Positions 47,970 through 60,083 of a stretch of DNA of 64,000 bases are shown here, piece by piece. The notes beneath the pieces were generated by a model. It saw only the letters and a list, made by a program, of their open reading frames with translations. It did not search any database and was not told where the DNA came from. Source of the stretch: an uncultured Acidobacteriaceae bacterium (GTDB lineage Bacteria; Acidobacteriota; Terriglobia; Terriglobales; Acidobacteriaceae). The position numbers and the translations under genes were made by a program. The stretch spans positions 99,318 through 163,317 of the forward strand of contig CAWFYX010000008.1 in the NCBI GenBank assembly GCA_963820175.1, read 5' to 3'. Numbering within the stretch: the stretch's first letter is position 1; the number at the start of each line of letters is the position of its first letter.

Positions 47970-50267
47970 GTGAAAGCACGTTTCGCTGCGTTCGTCGTCT
48001 TCGCCTTGTCCGCAACTCTTCTCATCGCGCAAGCCAATCCCCCCGCGGCGCCCGCGCCGCAAGGCCAGAAAGAGCTAACCATCGAAGACATCTTCAAGCC
48101 GGGCGGCATCCTGGGCCGCGGGCCGGAAGACATGAAATGGAGTCCGGACGGCACCAAGGTTTCCTTCGTGCAGCGCGACGATAGCGGCGAACACGGCGAG
48201 CTATATTACGTCGACGTGTCCACCGGCAAGTCGGCCGTGCTGGTAGCCAGCGGCAAGCTGGCGGCACTGGCTCCGCCTGCCAGCGCCATTAAGGATGAGC
48301 GCAAGAAGGAAGCGGCGACGCGCTATTCGATCGCGGCCTATCAATGGTCGCCCGACTCCAAGAAGCTGCTATTCGATTCGATGGGCCAGCTGTGGCTCTA
48401 CTCTCTGGAAACGGGGACAGGCGTTCAGGTCACTTCCAGCCTCGATGAAAGCGTCGATCCCAAGTTTTCTCCCGACGGAGGGCGCGTCTGCTACATCCGC
48501 AAACACAACCTCTACGTGCAGCCGTTGGCTGGGGGCGCCGAGCGCGAGCTGACCAAAGATGGCAACGATAACTTGCTGAATGGGGAAGTCGACTGGGTCT
48601 ACGAAGAGGAGCTGTACTCGCGTAGCAACTACTTTTGGTCGCCCGACGGCAAGGAGATTGTGTTTCTGCAGATGAACGAGAAAGATGTACCCACCTACCC
48701 CATCACCGACTGGATTCCGACCCACGCCACGGTCGATCAGGAGAAATATCCCCAGCCCGGCGATCCCAATCCCGACGTGCGACTGGGGGTAGTGAATGCG
48801 AATGGGGGCAAGCTTAAGTGGATCACGGTCAACAGCGGCAAGACCGGCTCGCTTCCCCTGGGCAACGATCCCGACGTGCTGATTCCACGCTTTGGCTGGG
48901 TGCACGCTGGGCTGTTGTGGGCGATGGTGCTCAACCGGGTACAAAACCGGCTCGATCTGTATTTCGTCGATGTCAACAGCGGCAACTCACAGCTCATGAT
49001 GACCGAGTCGACCGATGCCTGGATCGACATGCATCCCGAAGTCGATTTCAAGCTGCTGAATTCCGGCGAGACGTACTTGTGGACGAGCTGGCGCGACGGC
49101 CATAACCACCTCTATCTGTATCGCTACGACAAGCAAAATCCACTGCGCACCCAGGCTCAAGTCGCAGCCCAGCTCACGCAAGGTGACTGGGAAGTCGAGA
49201 GCATCGATGGGGTGGATGAGCAGCAGGGCATCGTGTACTTCTCGGCCAATGAGGGTGACTGGCGGCAGCGCAACGAATTCGCCGTCGGCCTGGATGGCAA
49301 AAACATCCATCGCGTCTCGAAAGAGGATGGCTTCCACGAGACGGACTTCGATCCCAAGAACACCAAGTATTATGTGGACAATTTTTCGGCGCTGACCGTT
49401 CCTCCGCGAGCTTCGCTCTGCACCATCATGGGAGATTGCATCGCTTTCTGGGAGCCGCACGGCGCCCAAACCTACAACCTGCTGACCCCGAAGTTTGTCG
49501 ACTTCAAAGCGGCCGACGGAACCACAACCTTGCAGGGAACGATTCTGCTGCCGCCGCCGGGAGGGCCCATGATCGCCAACGGCAAAGCGCCGCTGATCGT
49601 GAACCCCTACGGTGGCCCGGGAGTGCAGAGCGTGGTCGATGCCTGGAATGGTTTCGATCTCTTCGACCAGATTCTGGCGCGGCAGGGCTTCGCGGTTCTG
49701 CATGTCGACAATCGCGGCATGGCGAATCGCGGCAAAGCCTTCGCGCTGCCCATCAAGCATAACTTCGGTCCGGTTGAGTTGAGCGATCAGCTAGCCTCGG
49801 TGAAGCAGGCGCTGGAACAGTTTCCCCAACTCGACGGCAATCGCATCGGCTTCTGGGGCTGGAGTTACGGCGGATACTTCACGCTTTACGCGCTGGAGAA
49901 CTCCGACATCTTCAAAGGCGGTGTTTCGGTGGCCCCGGTTACCGACTGGCACAACTACGATTCCATCTACACCGAACGTTACATGGGTCTTCCCAAGGAC
50001 AACATAGACGGCTATAGGAACAGTTCGCCGGTCAACTTCGCCACCAAGTTGCATGGCAGTCTGCTGGAGGTGCATGGCACCAGCGACGACAATGTGCACA
50101 TGCAGAACACCATTCAGATGATCAACCAGTTCATCGAGACGGGTAAGCAGTTTCGGTTGATGCTCTATCCGGGCAAGACCCACGGCATCGCCGGATTTGC
50201 CGCACGCACCCATCTGTTCCACATGATCGACGACCACTTCCTGGAAATATTGGCGCCCGGGAAGTGA
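47970..50267 (+). CDS. S9-family dipeptidyl-peptidase IV-like serine peptidase
   Basis: Signal peptide, DPP-IV N-terminal propeller region, and a GWSYGGY nucleophile elbow with downstream D and H. Confidence 0.9.
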   Translation: MKARFAAFVVFALSATLLIAQANPPAAPAPQGQKELTIEDIFKPGGILGRGPEDMKWSPDGTKVSFVQRDDSGEHGELYYVDVSTGKSAVLVASGKLAALAPPASAIKDERKKEAATRYSIAAYQWSPDSKKLLFDSMGQLWLYSLETGTGVQVTSSLDESVDPKFSPDGGRVCYIRKHNLYVQPLAGGAERELTKDGNDNLLNGEVDWVYEEELYSRSNYFWSPDGKEIVFLQMNEKDVPTYPITDWIPTHATVDQEKYPQPGDPNPDVRLGVVNANGGKLKWITVNSGKTGSLPLGNDPDVLIPRFGWVHAGLLWAMVLNRVQNRLDLYFVDVNSGNSQLMMTESTDAWIDMHPEVDFKLLNSGETYLWTSWRDGHNHLYLYRYDKQNPLRTQAQVAAQLTQGDWEVESIDGVDEQQGIVYFSANEGDWRQRNEFAVGLDGKNIHRVSKEDGFHETDFDPKNTKYYVDNFSALTVPPRASLCTIMGDCIAFWEPHGAQTYNLLTPKFVDFKAADGTTTLQGTILLPPPGGPMIANGKAPLIVNPYGGPGVQSVVDAWNGFDLFDQILARQGFAVLHVDNRGMANRGKAFALPIKHNFGPVELSDQLASVKQALEQFPQLDGNRIGFWGWSYGGYFTLYALENSDIFKGGVSVAPVTDWHNYDSIYTERYMGLPKDNIDGYRNSSPVNFATKLHGSLLEVHGTSDDNVHMQNTIQMINQFIETGKQFRLMLYPGKTHGIAGFAARTHLFHMIDDHFLEILAPGK

Positions 50268-50364: not shown

Positions 50365-50613
50365 ATGCCAACGGTCCTCAGCTTCGCGGGATACCGAATC
50401 GTGGTTTATCCCAACGATCATCGGCAAGCGCACGTGCATGTCAGCGGCAACGACTGCGAAGCTGTGTTTGAGCTGAATTGCCCGATAGGCCCGATTGTTC
50501 TGCGAGAGAATTAGGGGTGCGGACGTTTGGAAATCGGACGAATCCGACGAGAGCTGAAGCGACAGCTGATCCGGCTATGTCGAGCATGGGAGAGAATTCA
50601 TGGCATCGAGTGA
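50365..50613 (+). pseudogene. DUF4160-family protein interrupted by in-frame TAG (50512-50514)
   Basis: MPTVLSFAGYRIVVYPNDHRQAHVHV...VLREN-TAG-GCGRLEIGRIRRELKRQLIRLCRAWERIHGIE; both halves match the family pattern in one frame. Confidence 0.7.
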
Positions 50614-51010
50614 CGAATTTCAGGCAGCCAATGAGCGTGCACGCCGCGTGCGCAGGAAGACGCCTGCGGCAGTGGCTGCCCAGTTTGATCGTAAGAGCGG
50701 GCGTATCGTCATTAGCTTGAGTTCTGGCGTCGAGGTCAGCTTTTCGCCCAGCGCAGCCGAGGGTTTGGAGAACGCCACGGCTTCCCAGTTAAGCGCAATC
50801 GAAATCACCCCCTCCGGATTGGGTATTCACTTTCCCAAGCTGGATGCCGACTTATACCTGCCTGCTTTGTTGGAGGGCGTGCTCGGGTCGAGGAAGTGGA
50901 TGGCGGCGAGGATGGGTTCTGTAGGCGGCAAGAGAACCAGCGTTGCGAAGCGGCAGGCGTCGCGAGCCAACGGGCGGTTAGGGGGGGCGCCCGAAGAAAG
51001 CGGCGGCTAG
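50600..51010 (+). CDS. DUF2442-family protein with basic C-terminal tail
   Basis: ...GRIVISLSSGVEVSFSP...LSAIEITPSGLGIHFPKLDADLYLPALLEG; overlaps the DUF4160 gene by 14 nt, the usual pairing for these two families. Confidence 0.7.
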   Translation: MASSDEFQAANERARRVRRKTPAAVAAQFDRKSGRIVISLSSGVEVSFSPSAAEGLENATASQLSAIEITPSGLGIHFPKLDADLYLPALLEGVLGSRKWMAARMGSVGGKRTSVAKRQASRANGRLGGAPEESGG

Positions 51011-51183: not shown

Positions 51184-52762
51184 CTGGCGACACAAATCTT
51201 CGCGTGCAAGTCCATTGACAAGCTGATCTCCGAATCGGAGGAGCCGGAACACCGGCTGAAGAAGACGCTGGGCCCGTGGTCGCTGACCGGACTGGGCATC
51301 GGCGCAGTCATTGGCTCCGGCATTTTCACCGTTATGGGAACGGCGATCGCGGGCCAGAAATTCGACACCGCATCGATCCTCAACAGCCCGCTGGCTGACT
51401 ACATCGTGCATCATGCCGCCACGCTCGGGCGTCCCGGCGCCGGACCAGCTCTGGCGATTTCGCTGATCCTGGTCGCCATCGTCTGCGCCTTCACCGGCCT
51501 CTGTTACGCGGAACTGGCATCGATGATTCCCATCGCCGGCAGCGCCTACACCTACACCTATGCGACCATGGGCGAACTGATCGCGTGGATCATCGGGTGG
51601 GACCTGATCCTGGAGTACGCGGTCAGCAACATGGCGGTCAGCGTGGGCTTCGCCGCGCACATGGCTGCCACCTTCAACTGGTTTGGCTGGCATCCCGCGT
51701 TGCGCTGGATCTCGCCCGCGTATCTGCCGGGCGGCCTCACCGATTTGCAAGGCAACGTTCTCTATACGCCGGGCTGGCACTTCGGCTTCAACATTCCCGC
51801 GTTTCTGATTGTCATGCTGCTCACGGTGGTGCTGGTGCGCGGCATTCGCGAGTCGACCGAGACCAACAACATCCTGGTCCTGCTGAAAATCGCAGCCATC
51901 CTGGCATTCGTGTTCGTAGGGATGCGCTTCATTCATCCCGCCAACTACCATCCCTTCGTGCCGGAAGGCTGGTCGGGCGTGCTCACCGGCGGATCGATCA
52001 TCTTCTTCACCTACATCGGATTCGATTCGGTCTCGACCGCGGCGGAGGAAGCCCGAAACCCGCAGCGCGACATTCCGATCGGCATCATCGCCACCCTGGT
52101 GGTTTGCACCTTGCTCTACATCGCCGTCGCCGTGGTGCTGACCGGGATCGTTCCCTGGCGCTCCTTGATCGATGACGCCGCTCCGGTAGTGAACAGCATG
52201 AGCATGCTGGCGGGCACGACAAAGTCTGCCCTGCTGCACTGGACCGAGCTAGCCGTGCTGTTCGGCGCGATGATGGGCATGATCTCGTCGCTGCTGGTGT
52301 TCCAACTGGGACAGGCGCGGGTATGGTTTTCCATGTCGCGCGACGGACTGCTGCCTGAGATGTTCAGCCGGGTGCATCCGCGCTTTCGCACGCCCGCCGT
52401 GGCGACGTGGATCGCAGGATTTCTCGTCGGCATTCCCGGAGGCATTCTCGATATTGGCACGTTGTCAGACCTGACGAACATCGGCACGCTATTTGCGTTT
52501 GTGCTGGTGTCGCTGGGCGTGATCATCCTGCGCTACAAGCAGCCGGATCGGCATCGAGGCTTCCGCGCTCCCGGCGGTTTGGCCGCGCCGATTCTCAGCG
52601 TGATCTTCTGCGTGTCTGCTGATGGCTGGCCTGCCGATTCTTACCTGGATACGATTCTTCGTGTGGCTGCTGATCGGCATGGTGGTGTATTGGCTTTACA
52701 GCCGCCATCGCAGCGAGTTCAGCCCGCGCAGCTCTGGCCCCGCACTCCACAGCGGCGATTAA
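51184..52762 (+). pseudogene. APC-superfamily amino acid permease; non-canonical start and 3' frameshift
   Basis: The conserved N-terminus (IFACKSIDKLISESEEPEHRLKKTLGPWSLTGLGIGAVIGSGIF) lies upstream of the first ATG (51334), and only CTG 51184 follows a GGGAG RBS. After about 52611-52618 the last TM helix (LLMAGLPILTWIRFFVWLLIGMVVYWLY...) continues in another frame to TAA 52760-52762. Confidence 0.8.
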
Positions 52763-52913
52763 GCGGTCAGCATTCAATCTTTCCATTTGACAAAGCGGAG
52801 CGTCACCGCCATAGTGGGCGCATAAATCCCTCATCAAGGCTCGTGACCTATGCCAGATCTCGGTTCCAACACGAGTCGTCCGCAGCCCAAGGCCAATACC
52901 GGCTCGGCGTTTC

Positions 52914-54086
52914 TTGAACTGGCTGAGTGACACCTCGACCGCTTTCGTGCATTTGGAACGCCGCTTCGATCCCGTCTACCGTCCTGCGTTCGATGCCCTG
53001 TTGCGCGATCCCATTGCACGGGTGGCCACGGCGTTGATCAACAGCAGGCGTCCGAACGAAGGGTTGAAGATCGCCGAGGAGCGGCCGATTCCGGACGAAG
53101 AAGCGTGGGTCGACTCCATCATCACGAGCTTCGAAAAACAGATGCGACTGCTGTGGAAGCCGGGAGGCTTCGAGCGCGGAGGCAATACCAAAACGCACGG
53201 CATCGTGCGCGGTGAGTTCATCGTCCACGACAATCTGCCTGCCGAACTGCGTCACGGTATCTACGCCGAGCCGCGCAGCTATCGCGCCTGGGTGCGCTTC
53301 TCCGGCCCCGGGCCGTACATCACGCCTGACATCGACGACGTAGGCTTCATGAGCATGAGCATCAAGCTGATGGGCGTGCCCGGGCCGAAGCTAATGGAGG
53401 AGGAGAAGTTCACCCAGGACATGACCGGCGTGTCCACGCCGACTTTCGTCACGCCCGATGTCAACGCTAACGCGCAACTGCAGATCGAGAGCCTGAAGAA
53501 TGCGCAGATCTTCTACTTCCTCAATTTCCATCGCTCTCACGTGCTCGATCTCATCATGCAGTCGCTGTGGATCAAGACCCAGAGCAGCCCGCTGGAAGCG
53601 CCTTACTTCAGTTGCGTTCCGTATCTGTTGGGGGAAGGCCAGGCCATGCAGTACTCGATGTGGCCGAAATCCAGCAAGCGAACTCGTATACCGCACCTGC
53701 CATTAAGGCCTCCCGACGACTATCTGCGCAATGCCATGGCGGCCACACTGGGCGAAGAAGATACCGAGTTCGATATTCGCCTGCAGCTGCAGACCGATCC
53801 GCACCTGATGCCCCTCGAGAACAACGCCGTGCTCTGGCCGGAAAAGCTATCGCCTCGCATCTCGGCAGCGACGCTGCATATTCCCCGACAGCAATTCAAC
53901 TCGCCGGCACAGATCAACTTTGAAAAGCAACTTTCCTACAATCCCTGGCATTGCATCGCTGAACATCGTCCCTTAGGCAATCAAAGCCGTGCCCGGCGAC
54001 GCATGTACTTCGTACTTTCCACCCTGCGCCATACCATGAACAACATTCCTCATTACGAGCCGACCGGAGACGAAGTCTTTGACTGA
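52914..54086 (+). CDS. Catalase-related haem protein (small catalase-like/peroxidase family)
   Basis: Distal-side motif ERGGNTKTHGIVRGEFIV and a proximal R....Y (RARRRMYF). TTG start; an ATG at 52850 in another frame might be the true start if one more indel is present. Confidence 0.7.
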   Translation: MNWLSDTSTAFVHLERRFDPVYRPAFDALLRDPIARVATALINSRRPNEGLKIAEERPIPDEEAWVDSIITSFEKQMRLLWKPGGFERGGNTKTHGIVRGEFIVHDNLPAELRHGIYAEPRSYRAWVRFSGPGPYITPDIDDVGFMSMSIKLMGVPGPKLMEEEKFTQDMTGVSTPTFVTPDVNANAQLQIESLKNAQIFYFLNFHRSHVLDLIMQSLWIKTQSSPLEAPYFSCVPYLLGEGQAMQYSMWPKSSKRTRIPHLPLRPPDDYLRNAMAATLGEEDTEFDIRLQLQTDPHLMPLENNAVLWPEKLSPRISAATLHIPRQQFNSPAQINFEKQLSYNPWHCIAEHRPLGNQSRARRRMYFVLSTLRHTMNNIPHYEPTGDEVFD

Positions 54087-54220
54087 CGGGGCACTACCAT
54101 GCCATTGACAAAAGCTCGCGCTGCCGCCATAGTGGCGACACTTCCACCGGGCGCTTCCAAAATCTAGTGATCGCCGGATTCCTCTGCAGTCGCCGGCGCA
54201 CATCGAGGAGACTGAATCCC

Positions 54221-54661
54221 ATGGCGTACACGGCGCCGCAGTTGCTGGCGATGTCCCAAAAACAGCTCGACGACCTTTTCGCCGCCAGTCCGGCCGGCGA
54301 TATTCCGAATGGAGAGGCGAACGGCACCGCCATCATTGCTTCGGGAACTCCCTTCTCGGCTGAGATTGCAGGGGTGATCGAGATTTTCGGCTGGAAGGGC
54401 AAGACCTTCGACGCCGCCCATGGAACGCTGATGAATCGGATCTCGGCCTTCGGGGTGAACGCTATCGTCGCCGAGGTTTACAAGACCGCGAGCTGGTTCG
54501 ATAGCAAAGAATGCATTGTGCTTGATTACTCGAAAACTTCGCTGGTGGCCGAACACATTCGCGACGAAATTCGTGAGATCAGTCCGGGGATGTATCTCGG
54601 CCTGGTGTATTGGAACAAAGACAGGACGATCCATTTTGCGCTGCAGTTTCCAAGTTCATGA
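54221..54661 (+). CDS. GXWXG/DUF4334-like small protein
   Basis: FGWKGKTF (GxWxG) followed by LDYSKTSLVAEHIRDEIREISPGMYLGLVYW. GAGGAG RBS; stop overlaps the next start (ATGA). Confidence 0.5.
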   Translation: MAYTAPQLLAMSQKQLDDLFAASPAGDIPNGEANGTAIIASGTPFSAEIAGVIEIFGWKGKTFDAAHGTLMNRISAFGVNAIVAEVYKTASWFDSKECIVLDYSKTSLVAEHIRDEIREISPGMYLGLVYWNKDRTIHFALQFPSS

Positions 54662-55960
54662 CGCCGCAATCCAACCTCATGGTGCTGGCGCCGATCGCGC
54701 CCGATCGGATCGACGATCTCCGCCAGTTGCTGACGTCCATGAATCGCAGTCCCGGCGTCGTCGACCCGCAGAATGCTTTGGTTCCCTTCGGGCAGTTCGA
54801 CCGGTTGCACTTCGGACGAATCCTCATTCTCAATGATCTGACGCTCGATGACATCACGGCGTATGGATTGCCGATAGCCGACTATCCCACGTACCTGGCG
54901 TTTCTAGCGGATTTCGACGGACCCTCGGAAACGTTCTTTGCTGAACTGGCGCAACGGGCCGGCGACGGCTTGAAGCGTATTTTTTCTCACTGTACGCACT
55001 TCGATCCGAACGCCAATCTTCTGGACTTGGATGAAGGCCCGCAACCTGACTCCGGCGACGATCTACGTGAACTGGATTGGGCGCACGGTTCGACAAGTCG
55101 GAGAGGAAGCGGCGCTGCACGATTCTCTGGTGGTTTGGTCGCAACAGAACGCCGCGGCATTGGCGGCTATGCCTCCCGCCCAGTTACATGGGGTGCTCAA
55201 ACAATATGTTCGCGGGGAACAGCAGGCCGGACGGCTGACGCTCACTCCCCCGGCACCAACACCGTTCGGCTGGTGGATTGGCAATTCGATTCATCTGCTA
55301 GGCGTGCCCCTATTGCTTCTGCTGCTTGCTCCGTTCCTGCTGATCTACTCTCCCGTCTTCTTCCTTCAGCTTCGCCGCCATGAGCGCTCTGACCCGGAAA
55401 TCGCACCGCGCATCGATCCCGTCCACGCGCACCAGTTGGCGACACTGGAAGATCACGACGTGACCAACCAGTTCAGCGCCATGGGCCAGATCAAGCCCGG
55501 CCCGTTCCGGCGCTGGCTGCTCATATTTCTTCTCTGGGTGATCAACTACACCGCCAGACACATTTACAACCACGGACGGCTGGCGCGGGTGAGCACAATT
55601 CATTTCGCGCGCTGGGTATTTCTCGACGACAAGAAGCGCCTGCTGTTCGCCAGCAACTACGATGGCAGCCTGGAAAGCTACATGGACGATTTCATCAACA
55701 AGGTTGGATTCGGCTTGAACGTGGTTTTCGGCAACGGCGTCGGCTATCCCACAACCAATTGGCTGCTTCTCGATGGTGCGAAGGACGAACAGAAGTTTAA
55801 GTACGTGCTTCGCCGCCACCAGTTGCCAACCGAAGTCTGGTACAACGCATATCCGGGGCTGACGGCATATGATAGGCACCGGAATCTGTTGATCCGGCAA
55901 GGACTGGAGAAGCCATCGATGAGCGATAGCGAAGCCCGGCAATGGCTGCGACTGATTTAG
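54658..55960 (+). pseudogene. Conserved hypothetical membrane protein with duplicated HF(G/A)R(I/W) motifs, one frameshift
   Basis: The frame changes near 55021-55031 (..NANLLD / WMKARNLTPATIYVNWIGRTV..). It has a central TM helix (LLGVPLLLLLLAPFLLIYSPVFF), plus LHFGRILIL and IHFARWVFLDD..LLFASNYDGSLESYMDDF. Confidence 0.65.
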
Positions 55961-56099
55961 TTACGGTTGGAAGGAGTTGCTATTAGCGTCGATTTACCGA
56001 AGCGGTGTAGGAGTTCGCGGCAGCTCGACCTGAAAATCATCAGGTTGGAACGAGGGTTCAAGCTCGCTTCGAATCAGCCGCGAAGCGGCGGCGATGAAG

Positions 56100-56259
56100 T
56101 TAGCCCAGGACGCAGCCGCAGGCGGAGTCCTGGGTAGGGCCACTGAAGATTGGCTGGAGTCCCGTAGGGACGCCGGAGGTTTGTGCCGCCGGCTGAAGCC
56201 GGCTAAGAGTGAAGAGGTACAGAACGATTCGGCGCGTCTAAAGGCGCGCCCCTTCAAAC
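56100..56259. repeat. REP-like repeat cluster (family B blocks plus GCCGGCTGAAGCCGGC and GGCGCGTCTAAAGGCGCGCC-CCTTCAAAC hairpins)
   Basis: Shares TTAGCCCAG / CTGGGTA / AGTCCCGTAGGGACG with 11111-11227. The last hairpin resembles 8187-8212 inside the ABC ATPase gene. Confidence 0.65.
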
Positions 56260-56299
56260 AATTGGGAACCTGATTTTCTTAGCAGGGAGCAACAACGGC

Positions 56300-57793
56300 G
56301 TGAACGGTTACGCAGTGGATTACAGCGACGTGCAAGGCCTGGTGCGTTTCGGTTATGCCGCACTCACCGAGGCCAGCTTTTTGCTGCTGCGCATTCGCGA
56401 TGCCCGGGCGGCGGCAGCATGGCTCGCCTCAGCGCCAATCTCGAACGCGGTCGCGCTGGATAAAGCTCCGCCCACCGCGATGCAGGTAGCGTTCACCCGC
56501 CCCGGTCTGGAGGCGTTGCATCTTCCCGCAAACGTGATCGCTGGATTCTCTGACGAGTTTCTCTCCGGCATGTGGGGCGAAGAAAACCGCTCGCACCGGC
56601 TGGGCGACATTGGAGCAAACGCTCCCGAGTATTGGCGTTGGGGTGGACCAGAGAAAGTTCCCCATGTCCTGGTGATGCTCTATGCGCAGAAGGGTCAATT
56701 GCAGGCATTCACTCAGGCAATCCAAAGTCCGGCATGGGATGCTGCGTTCGAGCTGATGGATTCGCTTCCGACTTCGGACCTGCAAGGCGTCGAGCCTTTC
56801 GGTTTCACTGACGGAATCAGCGAGCCCTCGCTGGACTGGGAGCGCCATCGCACCGCAGACGATCAGATTGCCTACACCAATCTTTCGTGCCTGGGCGAGT
56901 TTCTGCTCGGCTATCCCAACGAGTACGGCAGATATACCGATCGGCCGCTGCTGCCCGACAACAGCACGACTGCAGCATTACCCGAAGCCGAAGATCAACG
57001 GGGAATGCGTGATCTGGGCCGCAATGGCAGCTATCTGGTCCTGCGGCAATTGCAGCAGGATGTTCGCGGCTTTTGGCAATTCGCCGATCGCCAGGCGAAA
57101 TCCGATCCGCAAGCGCGCGAACAACTGGCGACTGCGATGGTGGGCCGCCATCGCAACGGCGATCCGTTGATGCCTTTGAGCAGGCAGCCAATCGAGGGAG
57201 TGCAACCAGCTCAGCCCTCCAATCAGTTCACTTATGATTCCGATGTTGACGGCACGCGCTGTCCCTTCGGGGCGCACGTTCGGCGCTCCAATCCGCGTAA
57301 TGCCGATTTTCCACCGGGAACCACAGGCCTCTTCTCGCGCCTGATTCACAATCTCGGCTTTGCAGGAACTGGTCTTCGCGAAGACATCATGTCGTCGACC
57401 CGTTTCCACCGACTGCTGCGGCGCGGTCGCGAGTATGGTCCGGGCCTGTCGCCCGAACAGGCGGTGCAGCCTGACTATCCCGATGCTGCCGAGCACGGGA
57501 TCCAATTCATCTGCATCAACGCGAACATTTCCCGTCAGTTCGAGTTCGTGCAGGGCGCCTGGATCATGAACACCAAGTTCAACGGGATGACCGGAGAGAG
57601 CGATCCTCTGCTGGGTAATCGCCAGCCGATTCCCGGCTGCGCGGTCACGAATAATTTTTCGCTGCCGCTGGAAAGCGGCCTTCCCCGCTGCATTTCCGGC
57701 CTGCCGCAATTCATAACCGTGCGCGGCGGCGCCTACTTCTTTCTGCCGGGAATCCGGGCCCTGCACTACCTGGCTACGCAAGGCCGCGAATAA
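56300..57793 (+). CDS. DyP-type peroxidase
   Basis: DVQGLVRFGY start, the GXXDG motif in FGFTDGISEP, distal R region, 497 aa; GTG start. Confidence 0.85.
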   Translation: MNGYAVDYSDVQGLVRFGYAALTEASFLLLRIRDARAAAAWLASAPISNAVALDKAPPTAMQVAFTRPGLEALHLPANVIAGFSDEFLSGMWGEENRSHRLGDIGANAPEYWRWGGPEKVPHVLVMLYAQKGQLQAFTQAIQSPAWDAAFELMDSLPTSDLQGVEPFGFTDGISEPSLDWERHRTADDQIAYTNLSCLGEFLLGYPNEYGRYTDRPLLPDNSTTAALPEAEDQRGMRDLGRNGSYLVLRQLQQDVRGFWQFADRQAKSDPQAREQLATAMVGRHRNGDPLMPLSRQPIEGVQPAQPSNQFTYDSDVDGTRCPFGAHVRRSNPRNADFPPGTTGLFSRLIHNLGFAGTGLREDIMSSTRFHRLLRRGREYGPGLSPEQAVQPDYPDAAEHGIQFICINANISRQFEFVQGAWIMNTKFNGMTGESDPLLGNRQPIPGCAVTNNFSLPLESGLPRCISGLPQFITVRGGAYFFLPGIRALHYLATQGRE

Positions 57794-60083
57794 TTACTGC
57801 GCCACTCCGCCCGCGGGAACATTCTCCTCCAGGTAGCGCGCGATCAGGCTGTGGATGTGAAACGAAGTACCCGGCCCCTCGGAGATCGAGTGAGTGCGAT
57901 TCGGATAATCCATCATGTCGAACGGCTTGCCCAGCGCGATCAGTTGGTTGATCAGCAACTCGGTTCCCTGGTAATGAACGTTGTCGTCGCCCGAGCCGTG
58001 CACGATCAGCAGCTTTCCGTTCAGTCCGTCCGCAAAGTTGATCGCTGAACCGTCGTGATAGCCCTTGACGTTGTCCTGCGGCAAACCCATGTAGCGTTCC
58101 TGATAGATGGTGTCGTAATGCTTCTGGTCGGCGACCGGAGCTACCGCGATCCCCGCTTTGAAGAGTCCAGGATAGCGAAACATCATGTTCAGCGTGTTAG
58201 AGCCGCCGCCGCTCCATCCCCAGATGGCGAGCCGTGAGGAATCGACATAAGCACGCTCTTTCGCCAGCTCACGAATCGCTTCCGCCTGCTGCCCCGAAGA
58301 CAGAACGCCCACGTCGCCGTAGACGATCTTTCGCCAGTCGCGCCCCTTTGGCGCCGGCGTCCCTTGGTTGTCGAAGCTCACCACCAGGTATCCCTGGCGC
58401 GCGATCAGCTCGTGAAACAGTCTGCGGGAACCGCCCCAGGCGTCGGTGACGGTCGCGCCGGCGGGTTCGCCGTAGATGTAAACCAACACTGGATATTTCT
58501 TCTTGGGATCGAAATCCGGTGGCTTGATCATCCATCCATCCAGCTTCACGCCGTCGCCCACCGGCACCTGGAAGAATTCGGCCGGCGAGGCGATCAGGTC
58601 TTTCGCTTTACGTGTCAAGGCTTCGTTGGCTTCGAGCACTCGCACTACCTTGTGATCAGGCAGGCTGACCAACTCCGTCACGGTCGGTCGATCGAAGGTA
58701 GAAACCGTATGAAACGCCCACTTGCCGTTAGGAGAGATGTCATAGCCGTGCGTCCCAGGCTCATCCGACGGCGTGACGCGCTGCGGCGATCCGCGGCCAT
58801 CGATCCGCGAGCGGTAAAGATATTTGCGGGTGGCATCGTCGGGCGAAGCGATGAAGTAAAACCATTTACCCGCATCGTCGACCGCGATCTCAGAGATCAC
58901 GTCTGCCGGGAAAGTTGGTGATGAGCTGCGGCTTGCCGTCGGCCCGCGAAATCACGTAGCCGTGGCGCCAGCCGTCGCGCTCACTGAGCCATACCAGGCC
59001 CTTTCCGTCTCCCACCCAGTCGAGCGCGCGCACGTAATCCACCCAGGCCGCGTCCTTGTCTTCGAACAACGCTCGCACCGAACCGGTGTGCACGTCCGCC
59101 AGCATTACCTGGTTGGTGTTCTGCAGCCGGTTCAGATATTCCAGGATCAGCTGGTCCGAATTCTTGGCCCACTCCATACGCGCAACGTAGTGATTGCGTG
59201 GATCACCCGGCATATCCATCCACTTGGTAGCGCCGCCCTGCGCCGAAACTACGCCGACCTTGACGGCGGAATTGGTTGTCCCCGGCTGCGGATAGGGATA
59301 CGTCGTCACCACCGGATATTCTTCTTTCGTGTCGTTGATCAGCGAGTATTCACCGACGCCGGTCGTATCGAACTGCCAGTACGCGATGGACTGGCTGTCA
59401 GGCCTCCAGCGAAACGCATCGCGCAGGCTCAACTCTTCTTCCGTCACCCAGTCGGTGGTGCCGTTGATCAGGGTCGCGGAGCCATCCTGCGTCAAAGCGT
59501 GAATCTGATCGGTCGCCAGGTCCTGCACGTAAATGTTATTGGCGCGCACGAAGCCAACGCTCTTGCCGTCAGGTGAGAACTTGGCAAACATCAGCGACGA
59601 CTCGGGCGCGTCGCCGCCCAGCTTCTTGAGGTGTCCGCTGGCCAGATCGAGGAGCCAGTAGTCACCTCGTGTGTTGAGCCGCCAAACTTTCTTAGTGTTG
59701 GTGAAGATCAGCAGTTGCTGGTTGTCTTCCGACCAGGCATAGTCGTCGATCTTCATCGGCTTCGCGTCCGGCGCAGCAATCAGCTTGGCAGCCGAGACCA
59801 AGACCGTACGCTTGCCGGTTGCGGTATCGTACTCGACAATGTCCTCGCCTTTGGGGACTGCAGCCGACGGCTCGACCGTGGTGTATTCCGCTCCCTTGTT
59901 AATCCAACGGGCAGGTCCGAAATGTTTCGCGTCAAATTCGTGCTTGTTGAAGATGGCGTCAAGGGTGGGAGAAAGTTGTTGCGCCTGCAGCAAAGCTGGG
60001 AGACAGGTTGCGATCAAGAGAGCGCAGGCAAGACGGAGGACAAACGAATTTTTAGAAATCATCGTGAGGTAGGCTCGCCGCAT
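57794..60083 (-). pseudogene. S9-family dipeptidyl-peptidase IV-like serine peptidase (second copy), frameshifted
   Basis: The propeller part (..LITNFPG) and the catalytic part (ADVISEIAVDDAGKWFYF...GWSGGG...GSGDDNVH) are in different frames. An extra G near 58898-58905 explains the shift. Confidence 0.85.

Follow-up and report, generated by a model that had tools for sequence, protein, structure and literature searches.

The question raised by this locus is why two different haem-peroxidase scaffolds should stand in a single gene cluster with two uncharacterised proteins, and what the four could be doing together. The cluster occupies positions 52850-57793 of a 64,000-nucleotide stretch of DNA (the whole of which is called the window here) from an uncultured Acidobacteriaceae bacterium (assembly GCA_963820175.1, contig CAWFYX010000008.1), and consists of four genes on the + strand, which we named CAT, P146, M433 and DyP. 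CAT (52850..54086) encodes a predicted catalase-fold haem protein of 411 aa after repair of a frame break, P146 (54221..54661) a small soluble protein of 146 aa belonging to an uncharacterised family, M433 (54658..55960) a protein of 433 aa, also after repair, and DyP (56300..57793) a DyP-type haem peroxidase of 497 aa. According to the list of open reading frames (ORFs), the four genes are consecutive and on the same strand, as an earlier note made from the sequence alone had described them, and the TGA stop of P146 overlaps the ATG of M433 as ATGA at 54658-54661, which that note had also recognised. The comparative analysis described below shows that the four genes co-occur far beyond chance and that they form a real and widespread module that is kept by selection.

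Conservation, fusions and alternation of haem partners

Related loci were collected from a one-genome-per-species scan (80 loci) and supplemented with two metagenomic relatives, which gave a set of 82; 56 of these have complete 8-kb flanks (full-flank loci), and genes were counted by profile search in six frames. Both M433 and DyP were found in 82/82 loci (56/56 of the full-flank ones), and DyP stood directly after M433, on the same strand, in 82/82. P146 was present in 78/82 loci (54/56 full-flank) and CAT in 69/82 (52/56 full-flank), while all four genes were found together in 51/56 full-flank loci. M433 and DyP are an invariant core and an obligate pair, and P146 is the usual partner of M433, often with a translational overlap. 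The carriers belong to at least seven phyla (Acidobacteriota, Methylomirabilota/Rokubacteria, Verrucomicrobiota, Alpha-, Beta- and 'Delta'-proteobacteria, Planctomycetota, Nitrospirota and Binatia), are mostly soil bacteria and include the cultured Acidobacteriaceae KBS 89 and Paraburkholderia caffeinitolerans, so that the conserved neighbourhood on which the grouping of the four genes in the earlier note depended does exist across phyla. Three gene orders were seen: CAT-P146-M433-DyP, P146-CAT-M433-DyP, and P146-M433-DyP with CAT downstream on the opposite strand. The linkage is kept despite these changes of order, as expected under selection for co-function.

We also analysed a more distant set, seeded with relatives at 31-41% identity, which contained 84 usable metagenomic loci, many of them on short contigs. 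The M433-DyP pair persists in this set, with 61/84 loci carrying both genes, a count to be read with the short contigs in mind. CAT was present in 16 of the distant loci and a cytochrome P450 (P450) in 14, and no locus had both; P146 and an alpha-dioxygenase-like protein accompany CAT and never P450. CAT and P450 are alternative haem partners of M433-DyP that never occur together. Furthermore, the same proteins are found joined in single polypeptides. P146 is fused to M433, with P146 N-terminal, in P0372, P0407 and L089; M433 is fused to DyP in P0406, P0448, P0453, P0477, P0495 and P0436; and an exo/endonuclease-phosphatase (EEP) domain is fused to M433 in P0383. The longest fusions are P450-M433-DyP proteins of 1423-1620 aa, with an N-terminal P450, a full M433 in the middle and a C-terminal DyP of the same subfamily as that of the window. 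They are encoded on plasmids of Pararhizobium qamdonense (L083:3889-8160, NZ_CP119567.1), Novosphingobium aromaticivorans DSM 12444 (L084:3829-8160, NC_009427.1, SARO_RS19865) and Sulfitobacter pontiacus (L085:3787-8649, NZ_CP049345.1), the second of which is a genetically tractable strain. Their annotations read merely 'cytochrome P450' or 'Dyp-type peroxidase domain-containing protein'. Typing against the PDB showed that the associated P450s resemble ordinary bacterial class-I P450s with an acid-alcohol pair; an argument for a CYP74-like hydroperoxide isomerase was dropped, since this typing returned generic bacterial P450s only.

Several other genes recur around the module. A predicted lipoprotein of about 816 aa with two CxxCH motifs was found in 47/56 full-flank loci, and its haem-c motifs imply a probable periplasmic component of the full system; one example (L038:3154-5604, - strand) matched no Pfam family above threshold and had no PDB relative. 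A cytoplasmic GMC flavoprotein was found in 33/56 full-flank loci. The genes for both are absent from the window and present in its close relatives L002-L004, which makes the window a reduced, four-gene version. Additionally, alpha-dioxygenase-like haem proteins of the animal-haem-peroxidase family, closest to plant fatty-acid alpha-dioxygenases (4kvj, E=3.5e-56), occur in 12/82 related and 8/84 distant loci. Their gene lies within the operon at several loci, sometimes between DyP and CAT, and at L092 it is directly upstream of an EEP-M433 gene, whose start it overlaps. Some loci have lipases as neighbours (patatin-like phospholipases, a Tle1-like phospholipase and a PGAP1-like lipase), and distant loci also have short-chain dehydrogenases, metallophosphoesterases and FAD oxidases. 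Among the alpha-dioxygenase-like proteins themselves, those of L092 (5364-7004) and L089 (9273-11147) read FMIKDW/FMIRDW where the acidobacterial protein of L014 (12491-15352) reads FMTHDW, and the presumed distal His would be replaced by Lys/Arg in these two lineages.

The four protein families

The M433 family comprises at least 5693 close relatives, without a Pfam domain (2681 representatives at 50% clustering). The window protein matched no NCBIfam, Pfam (E<=10) or PDB sequence, and the family profile found among PDB sequences only designed transmembrane helices, matched through the hydrophobic segment. The AlphaFold model, made from a 65-sequence alignment (pLDDT 95.1, pTM 0.92), contains two beta-alpha-beta-beta-alpha-beta units at about residues 4-137 and 269-396, with about 125 helical residues between them. 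The N- and C-terminal halves are homologous (HHalign 99.7%, E=2.4e-26) and align at the H-F-[AG]-R strand and at the motif F-x-S-N-[YF]-D-G...D-F-I; the protein contains both LHFGRILIL and IHFARWVFL, from which the duplicated ferredoxin-like halves had originally been recognised, and model and alignment agree with that duplication. One His is conserved in each half (H51 and H315), and C112 and Y341 are invariant. The best Foldseek matches of the model were WhiE-ORFI (9lmn, E=3.2e-5), the polyketide decarboxylase Abx(+)O (9ltx, E=1.1e-3) and FN1347 (3mcs, E=4.3e-3), with probabilities of 0.99-1.00, TM scores of 0.45-0.61 on the target and 7-8% identity. Like M433, these proteins consist of two ferredoxin-like repeats in a pseudo-dimeric barrel, but M433 adds the helical insert of about 125 residues with its hydrophobic hairpin and shows no match to them at the sequence level; moreover, its partners are haem enzymes and not polyketide synthases. 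M433 is thus predicted to fold into an alpha+beta barrel of two tandem ferredoxin-like (ABM-like) units interrupted by a helical insert, and is treated as a new family because no Pfam ABM-related model was matched at E<=10.

The earlier note had suggested that M433 could itself be a divergent member of the DyP/chlorite-dismutase (Cld)/EfeB superfamily. We found no relationship between M433 and the DyP family of the same loci (HHalign probability 0.1%), no GXXDG motif and no Pfam/TIGR DyP match, and no DyP, Cld, EfeB, IsdG or HemQ among the top 50 Foldseek matches; the folds nearest to the repaired protein are the tandem ABM/SchA-like barrels instead. In the same note a single transmembrane helix had been placed at the centre of the protein. 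There is indeed one hydrophobic segment, at 55271..55372 on the + strand (residues 205-238, WWIGNSIHLLGVPLLLLLLAPFLLIYSPVFFLQL), with a Kyte-Doolittle peak of 2.58 (19-residue window) and no comparable segment in CAT, P146 or DyP. AlphaFold models it as helix-break-helix (203-222 and 224-244, with the break at 223), and the 34-residue stretch is better read as a putative membrane-inserting helical hairpin than as one transmembrane helix, because both halves pack into one barrel and would have to be on one side of the membrane, which fits a hairpin and not a single pass.

The DyP of the window is similar over its full length to known DyPs and shares their catalytic residues. Its best PDB match was the DyP of Deinococcus radiodurans (8re3, E=1.7e-35 over residues 64-492; PMC10820274), and 19 further DyP chains were matched, including Amycolatopsis DyP2 (4g2c), Anabaena AnaPX (5c2i) and fungal DyPs. 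The catalytic motifs are intact: FGFTDG with D171 of GXXDG, GAHVRRSNPR with H326, and HRLLRRG with R374/R375. D171, the proximal H326 and the distal R374/R375 show at least 95% conservation among 68 family members and line up with the corresponding motifs of 8re3, and the assignment as a DyP-type peroxidase first made from the letters FGFTDGISEP is secure at this level. The subfamily is divergent, because its scores fall below curated cut-offs: the match to TIGR01413 (E=4.9e-21) reaches 75 bits against a cut-off of 100.5, and that to Pfam Dyp_perox_C 17.6 against 20. It also differs from the known DyPs in that it always stands directly after M433 or is fused to it. To our knowledge, no M433-type partner has been described for EfeB (EfeUOB), encapsulin-cargo or Tat-secreted DyPs.

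The CAT family has 7167 relatives, some of which are named 'catalase family protein' by NCBI. The single sequence matched no Pfam, NCBIfam or PDB entry, and Pfam Catalase was not matched even at E<=10. A profile of 29 diverse members matched exactly three PDB sequences (E 0.002-0.02): 1u5u and 3dy5, both of coral allene oxide synthase (AOS), and 3e4w, which (with 3e4y) is the 33-kDa catalase-related protein of Mycobacterium avium subsp. paratuberculosis (MAP). The AlphaFold model of CAT has low confidence (pLDDT 49.8), since it comes from a shallow alignment of sequences 82-95% identical to the query, and was used as weak evidence of fold only. In a Foldseek search with it, the best 50 of 76 matches (E<=0.001) were all catalase-fold proteins with TM scores of about 0.4; 1u5u and 3dy5 took ranks 1-2 (1u5u first, E=1.2e-8), and 3e4y was 11th. 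Profile and predicted fold lend support to the catalase relationship that had been proposed for this gene. As regards the haem ligands, CAT contains ERGGNTKTHGIVRGEF and RARRRMY. The latter holds R-x-x-x-Y, which we equate with the catalase proximal motif; it corresponds to R382 and Y386 (411-aa numbering) and is invariant in the 29 diverse members, in agreement with the Tyr that the earlier note had chosen as proximal ligand.

The distal side is different. Across the family the motif reads E-R-x-G-N-T-K-T-[H/Y/Q]-G, so that the His of NTKTHG, formerly included in the distal motif, varies (H/Y/Q) and is not a conserved distal residue. In the HMMER alignment, the near-invariant Asn of E-R-G-G-N-T-K-T falls opposite the distal His of catalase and AOS, and the window CAT has no distal His in the context R-x-x-H. 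A distant member encoded beside M433-DyP (L090) reads L-R-G-F-H-S-K at this position, and its retention of R-G-F-H supports the alignment. On this alignment, the subfamily of the window has swapped the distal His for Asn while keeping the proximal Arg and Tyr. CAT is best described as catalase-related in predicted fold and proximal ligation and not as a canonical catalase, and probably not as a true H2O2-dismutating one, because Asn replaces the distal His. CAT has the proximal Tyr and Arg, and probably also the small catalase core, in common with the coral and MAP proteins, but the similarity is marginal and these do not have the near-invariant Asn; furthermore, coral AOS is fused to a lipoxygenase, whereas CAT is linked to P146, M433 and DyP. 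At least three CAT subtypes can be distinguished, with H/Q, with Y or with a canonical His in the distal motif, and their positions in the cluster differ. CAT is also unusually conserved: proteins from Acidobacteriota, Verrucomicrobiota and Betaproteobacteria share about 80% identity, while M433 and DyP in the same loci (L024, L028 and others) are 52-60% identical.

P146 has at least 6535 relatives, and none of the 120 listed carries a Pfam domain. The conserved residues are W58-x-G60-K61-x-F63 and D-Y-S-x-T-S...R-D-E-I-R (numbering of the 146-aa window protein). The window sequence matched no NCBIfam or PDB entry, the family profile had no match in the PDB, and neither the window protein nor 23 diverse members matched any Pfam model at E<=10, profile-profile comparison with Pfam not having been run. 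The label GXWXG (PF14231)/DUF4334 (PF14232), under which the gene at 54221-54661 had first been noted, is not supported on this basis (0/23 members), and our search of the literature on DUF4334/GXWXG gave nothing relevant.

Candidate functions

A membrane-tethered assembly of M433, P146 and DyP, working with CAT on lipid or fatty-acid hydroperoxides, is a reading of these data to which we give an even chance. The hairpin would anchor M433, with P146 bound to it, to the inner membrane on the cytoplasmic side, where M433 would dock DyP, itself cytoplasmic. By means of its barrel and its amphipathic insert, M433 could draw lipophilic molecules out of the bilayer; the most likely ones are hydroperoxides of fatty acids or lipids, or related compounds derived from lipids. 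DyP would then use the peroxide oxidatively or reductively, and CAT could rearrange or reduce the same class of organic hydroperoxide, in the manner of catalase-related allene oxide synthases and lyases; where P450 replaces CAT, it may act on the same class of substrate. Lipid hydroperoxides are the leading candidate because lipase and fatty-acid-dioxygenase neighbours recur. The early guess of lipid or organic hydroperoxide processing has gained indirect support from neighbours and fusions but is still a hypothesis. In this regard, the MAP catalase-related protein works on organic hydroperoxides and not in H2O2 dismutation. The coral catalase-related enzymes likewise act on organic and fatty-acid hydroperoxides and do not dismutate H2O2 (PMC5617202). 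A more tentative proposal, plausible although on balance doubtful, is that M433 defines a new class of membrane-anchored partner proteins, spread over several phyla, that physically couple the cytoplasmic DyP to a second haem enzyme, CAT or P450, in an unrecognised bacterial pathway by which membrane lipids in oxidised form (oxylipins or lipid hydroperoxides) are made or disposed of; the P450-M433-DyP proteins would then be self-contained, three-domain versions of this arrangement.

Several observations weigh against a lipid hydroperoxide module. The substrate is suggested only by neighbours that are present in a minority of loci, and the four genes of the window have no adjacent dioxygenase, lipase, GMC oxidoreductase or dihaem cytochrome. 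The associated P450s, with their acid-alcohol pair, are not CYP74-type hydroperoxide isomerases, the proteins nearest to M433 in structure have aromatic polyketides and not lipids as substrates, and the chemistry of CAT is uncertain without a distal His and with a model of such low pLDDT. In addition, membrane insertion of the hairpin and the topology are predictions, and contact between M433 and DyP is suggested solely by fusion and adjacency.

A rival reading is the oxidation of an aromatic, quinone or polyketide compound, in which the GMC flavoprotein would make H2O2 and DyP would oxidise an aromatic or quinonoid substrate (a humic- or lignin-derived compound, a pigment or a membrane quinol), with M433 as an ABM-type cofactor-free oxygenase, decarboxylase or carrier. 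The best matches of M433 are the polyketide ABM/SchA-like proteins WhiE-ORFI and AbxO, a GMC oxidoreductase is encoded at more than half of the full-flank loci, some distant loci encode FAD-linked ALO-type oxidases and a SnoaL-like protein, the carriers are mostly soil bacteria, and DyPs classically prefer anthraquinone dyes. However, the similarity to the polyketide proteins is limited to TM scores of 0.45-0.61 at 8% identity, lipases and fatty-acid dioxygenase homologues recur in the 166 loci but genes for polyketide synthases or aromatic-ring pathways do not, and no N-terminal signal peptide was seen in the four core proteins (by eye and hydropathy, no predictor having been run), so that the substrate would be intracellular or in the membrane; we consider this explanation unlikely. 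M433 could instead bind haem and serve DyP, CAT, P450 and the animal-type peroxidase as a partner in electron transfer or haem handling, for example with electrons from the quinol pool; it would then resemble cytochrome b5 or the IsdG/HemQ barrels, but in a membrane-anchored form. This would account for the fact that every recurrent enzymatic or fusion partner is a haem protein and for the position of M433 between P450 and DyP in the triple fusions; H51 and H315 are conserved, C112 and Y341 invariant, and ABM and Cld-type barrels include haem binders. The absence of a haem-binding motif, and of IsdG, HemQ or Cld among the top Foldseek matches, together with the fact that P146 and the lipase and dioxygenase neighbours are left unexplained, make it quite unlikely in our view.

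An ordinary oxidative-stress cluster, in which a catalase and a peroxidase clear H2O2 and the two genes between them are unrelated hypothetical ones, would account for two haem peroxide-handling scaffolds side by side, and the NCBI name of CAT relatives is in line with it. This is very unlikely, given that Asn stands in place of the distal His needed for catalase turnover, that Pfam Catalase is not matched, that P146 and M433 are linked to DyP more tightly than CAT is, and also fused, and that P450 can stand in for CAT. The proposal that M433 is itself a membrane-anchored DyP/Cld/EfeB protein agrees with the two confirmed ferredoxin-like halves and with the broad dimeric alpha+beta-barrel fold class to which DyP, Cld and ABM proteins all belong, but the HHalign, Foldseek and motif results given above speak against it and we regard it as highly improbable. 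Lastly, PADLOC returned no match for any of the four proteins, which therefore are not a known defence system.

The closest parallel in logic to the proposed lipid hydroperoxide module is found in systems in which a haem or iron dioxygenase makes a fatty-acid hydroperoxide that is converted by a second haem enzyme, such as the coral AOS-lipoxygenase and the fungal fusions of dioxygenase (DOX) and P450, namely linoleate diol synthase, DOX-AOS and DOX-EAS (PMC13049297). An alpha-dioxygenase-like protein and either CAT or P450 recur around M433-DyP, but the likeness is an analogy of logic only: the M433-DyP core is absent from those systems, neither the window nor most of the loci contain the dioxygenase, and the M433-associated P450s are not of the hydroperoxide-isomerase type. 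Our search of the literature found no description of the gene combination, of P450-DyP fusions or of a DyP with a lipid hydroperoxide, just as the earlier note knew of no pathway using this combination. As far as we could find, the folds of the components are known, while the partner family, the architecture and the module have not been described. We regard the whole as a DyP system with a dedicated partner, and there is a real chance that it is a new pathway.

DyPs are widely studied as biocatalysts, and their physiological substrates in bacteria are mostly unknown. An obligate membrane partner that is well predicted, together with accessory proteins, gives a concrete handle on the physiology of a large DyP subfamily, and three of the four families, each with thousands of members, lack a model in Pfam and NCBIfam. 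The exclusive alternation of CAT and P450 suggests that two haem scaffolds fill one role; plant, fungal and coral oxylipin pathways offer a parallel. If the link to lipids is true, the module would show how soil phyla such as Acidobacteriota, Verrucomicrobiota and Methylomirabilota handle oxidised lipids, and would offer natural multi-haem fusion enzymes for biocatalysis.

Promoters, reading frames and flanking genes

Two copies of the same promoter-like site, TTGACA-N17-CATAGT, were found on the + strand, one upstream of CAT (52787..52815) and the other upstream of P146 (54105..54133). There are no further copies in the 64 kb of the window, and the number expected by chance is 0.00. An extended element, CCATTGACAAA...GCCGCCATAGTGGGCG, is kept upstream of CAT in L001, the closest intact relative of the window cluster (its products are 93-96% identical to those of the window), and upstream of P146 in L001-L004. 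The two copies of one promoter type, conserved in relatives, suggest that CAT and P146-M433(-DyP) may be two co-regulated transcription units. Within the element, the -10 hexamer is covered by a short palindrome, CGCCATAGTGGCG, which might be an operator. A GAGGAG Shine-Dalgarno sequence precedes P146. The spacer between M433 and DyP (55961..56299, + strand) measures 339 nt, whereas in most other loci DyP starts about 10-100 nt after the M433 stop; it is conserved (about 87%) only in L001 and L004 and is not repeated elsewhere in the window. It had no Rfam match, nor had any other part of 52000-58500.

The comparison with L001 also revealed four +1 insertions, at 52613, 52910, 55025-55028 and 58906, each in a separate neighbouring gene: the C-terminus of an amino-acid permease, the N-terminus of CAT, M433 and an S9 peptidase, respectively. 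In CAT, the true start according to the alignment with L001 is at 52850 (ATG), and an additional base lies near 52910; the listed ORF (52914-54086) gives 390 aa; without the extra base the product has 411 aa, a length also found in many relatives. M433 is split in the window into two ORFs, 54610-55383 and 55031-55960, and was repaired by deleting one T at 55027/55028. Like the resulting protein, most of the 120 listed relatives have 433 aa (a few have 399-435 aa); the best of them is 93% identical. The insertion at 58906 splits the S9 peptidase into 57794-58900 and 58890-60083. The four frame breaks are most likely errors of assembly or polishing and not gene decay, because each consists of one inserted base, and because the genes affected are neighbours with a high degree of conservation and no other interruption of their frames; a pseudogene cluster was rejected for the same reason.

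Genes for serine peptidases of the DPP-IV/S9 type flank the cluster on both sides, at 47970-50267 (+ strand) and 57794-60083 (- strand), and a DUF2442 gene (50600-51010) and the amino-acid permease (51334 to about 52762 after repair) also lie beside it. This flank is probably unrelated to the module, because it is common to the window and L001 but not to the other relatives.

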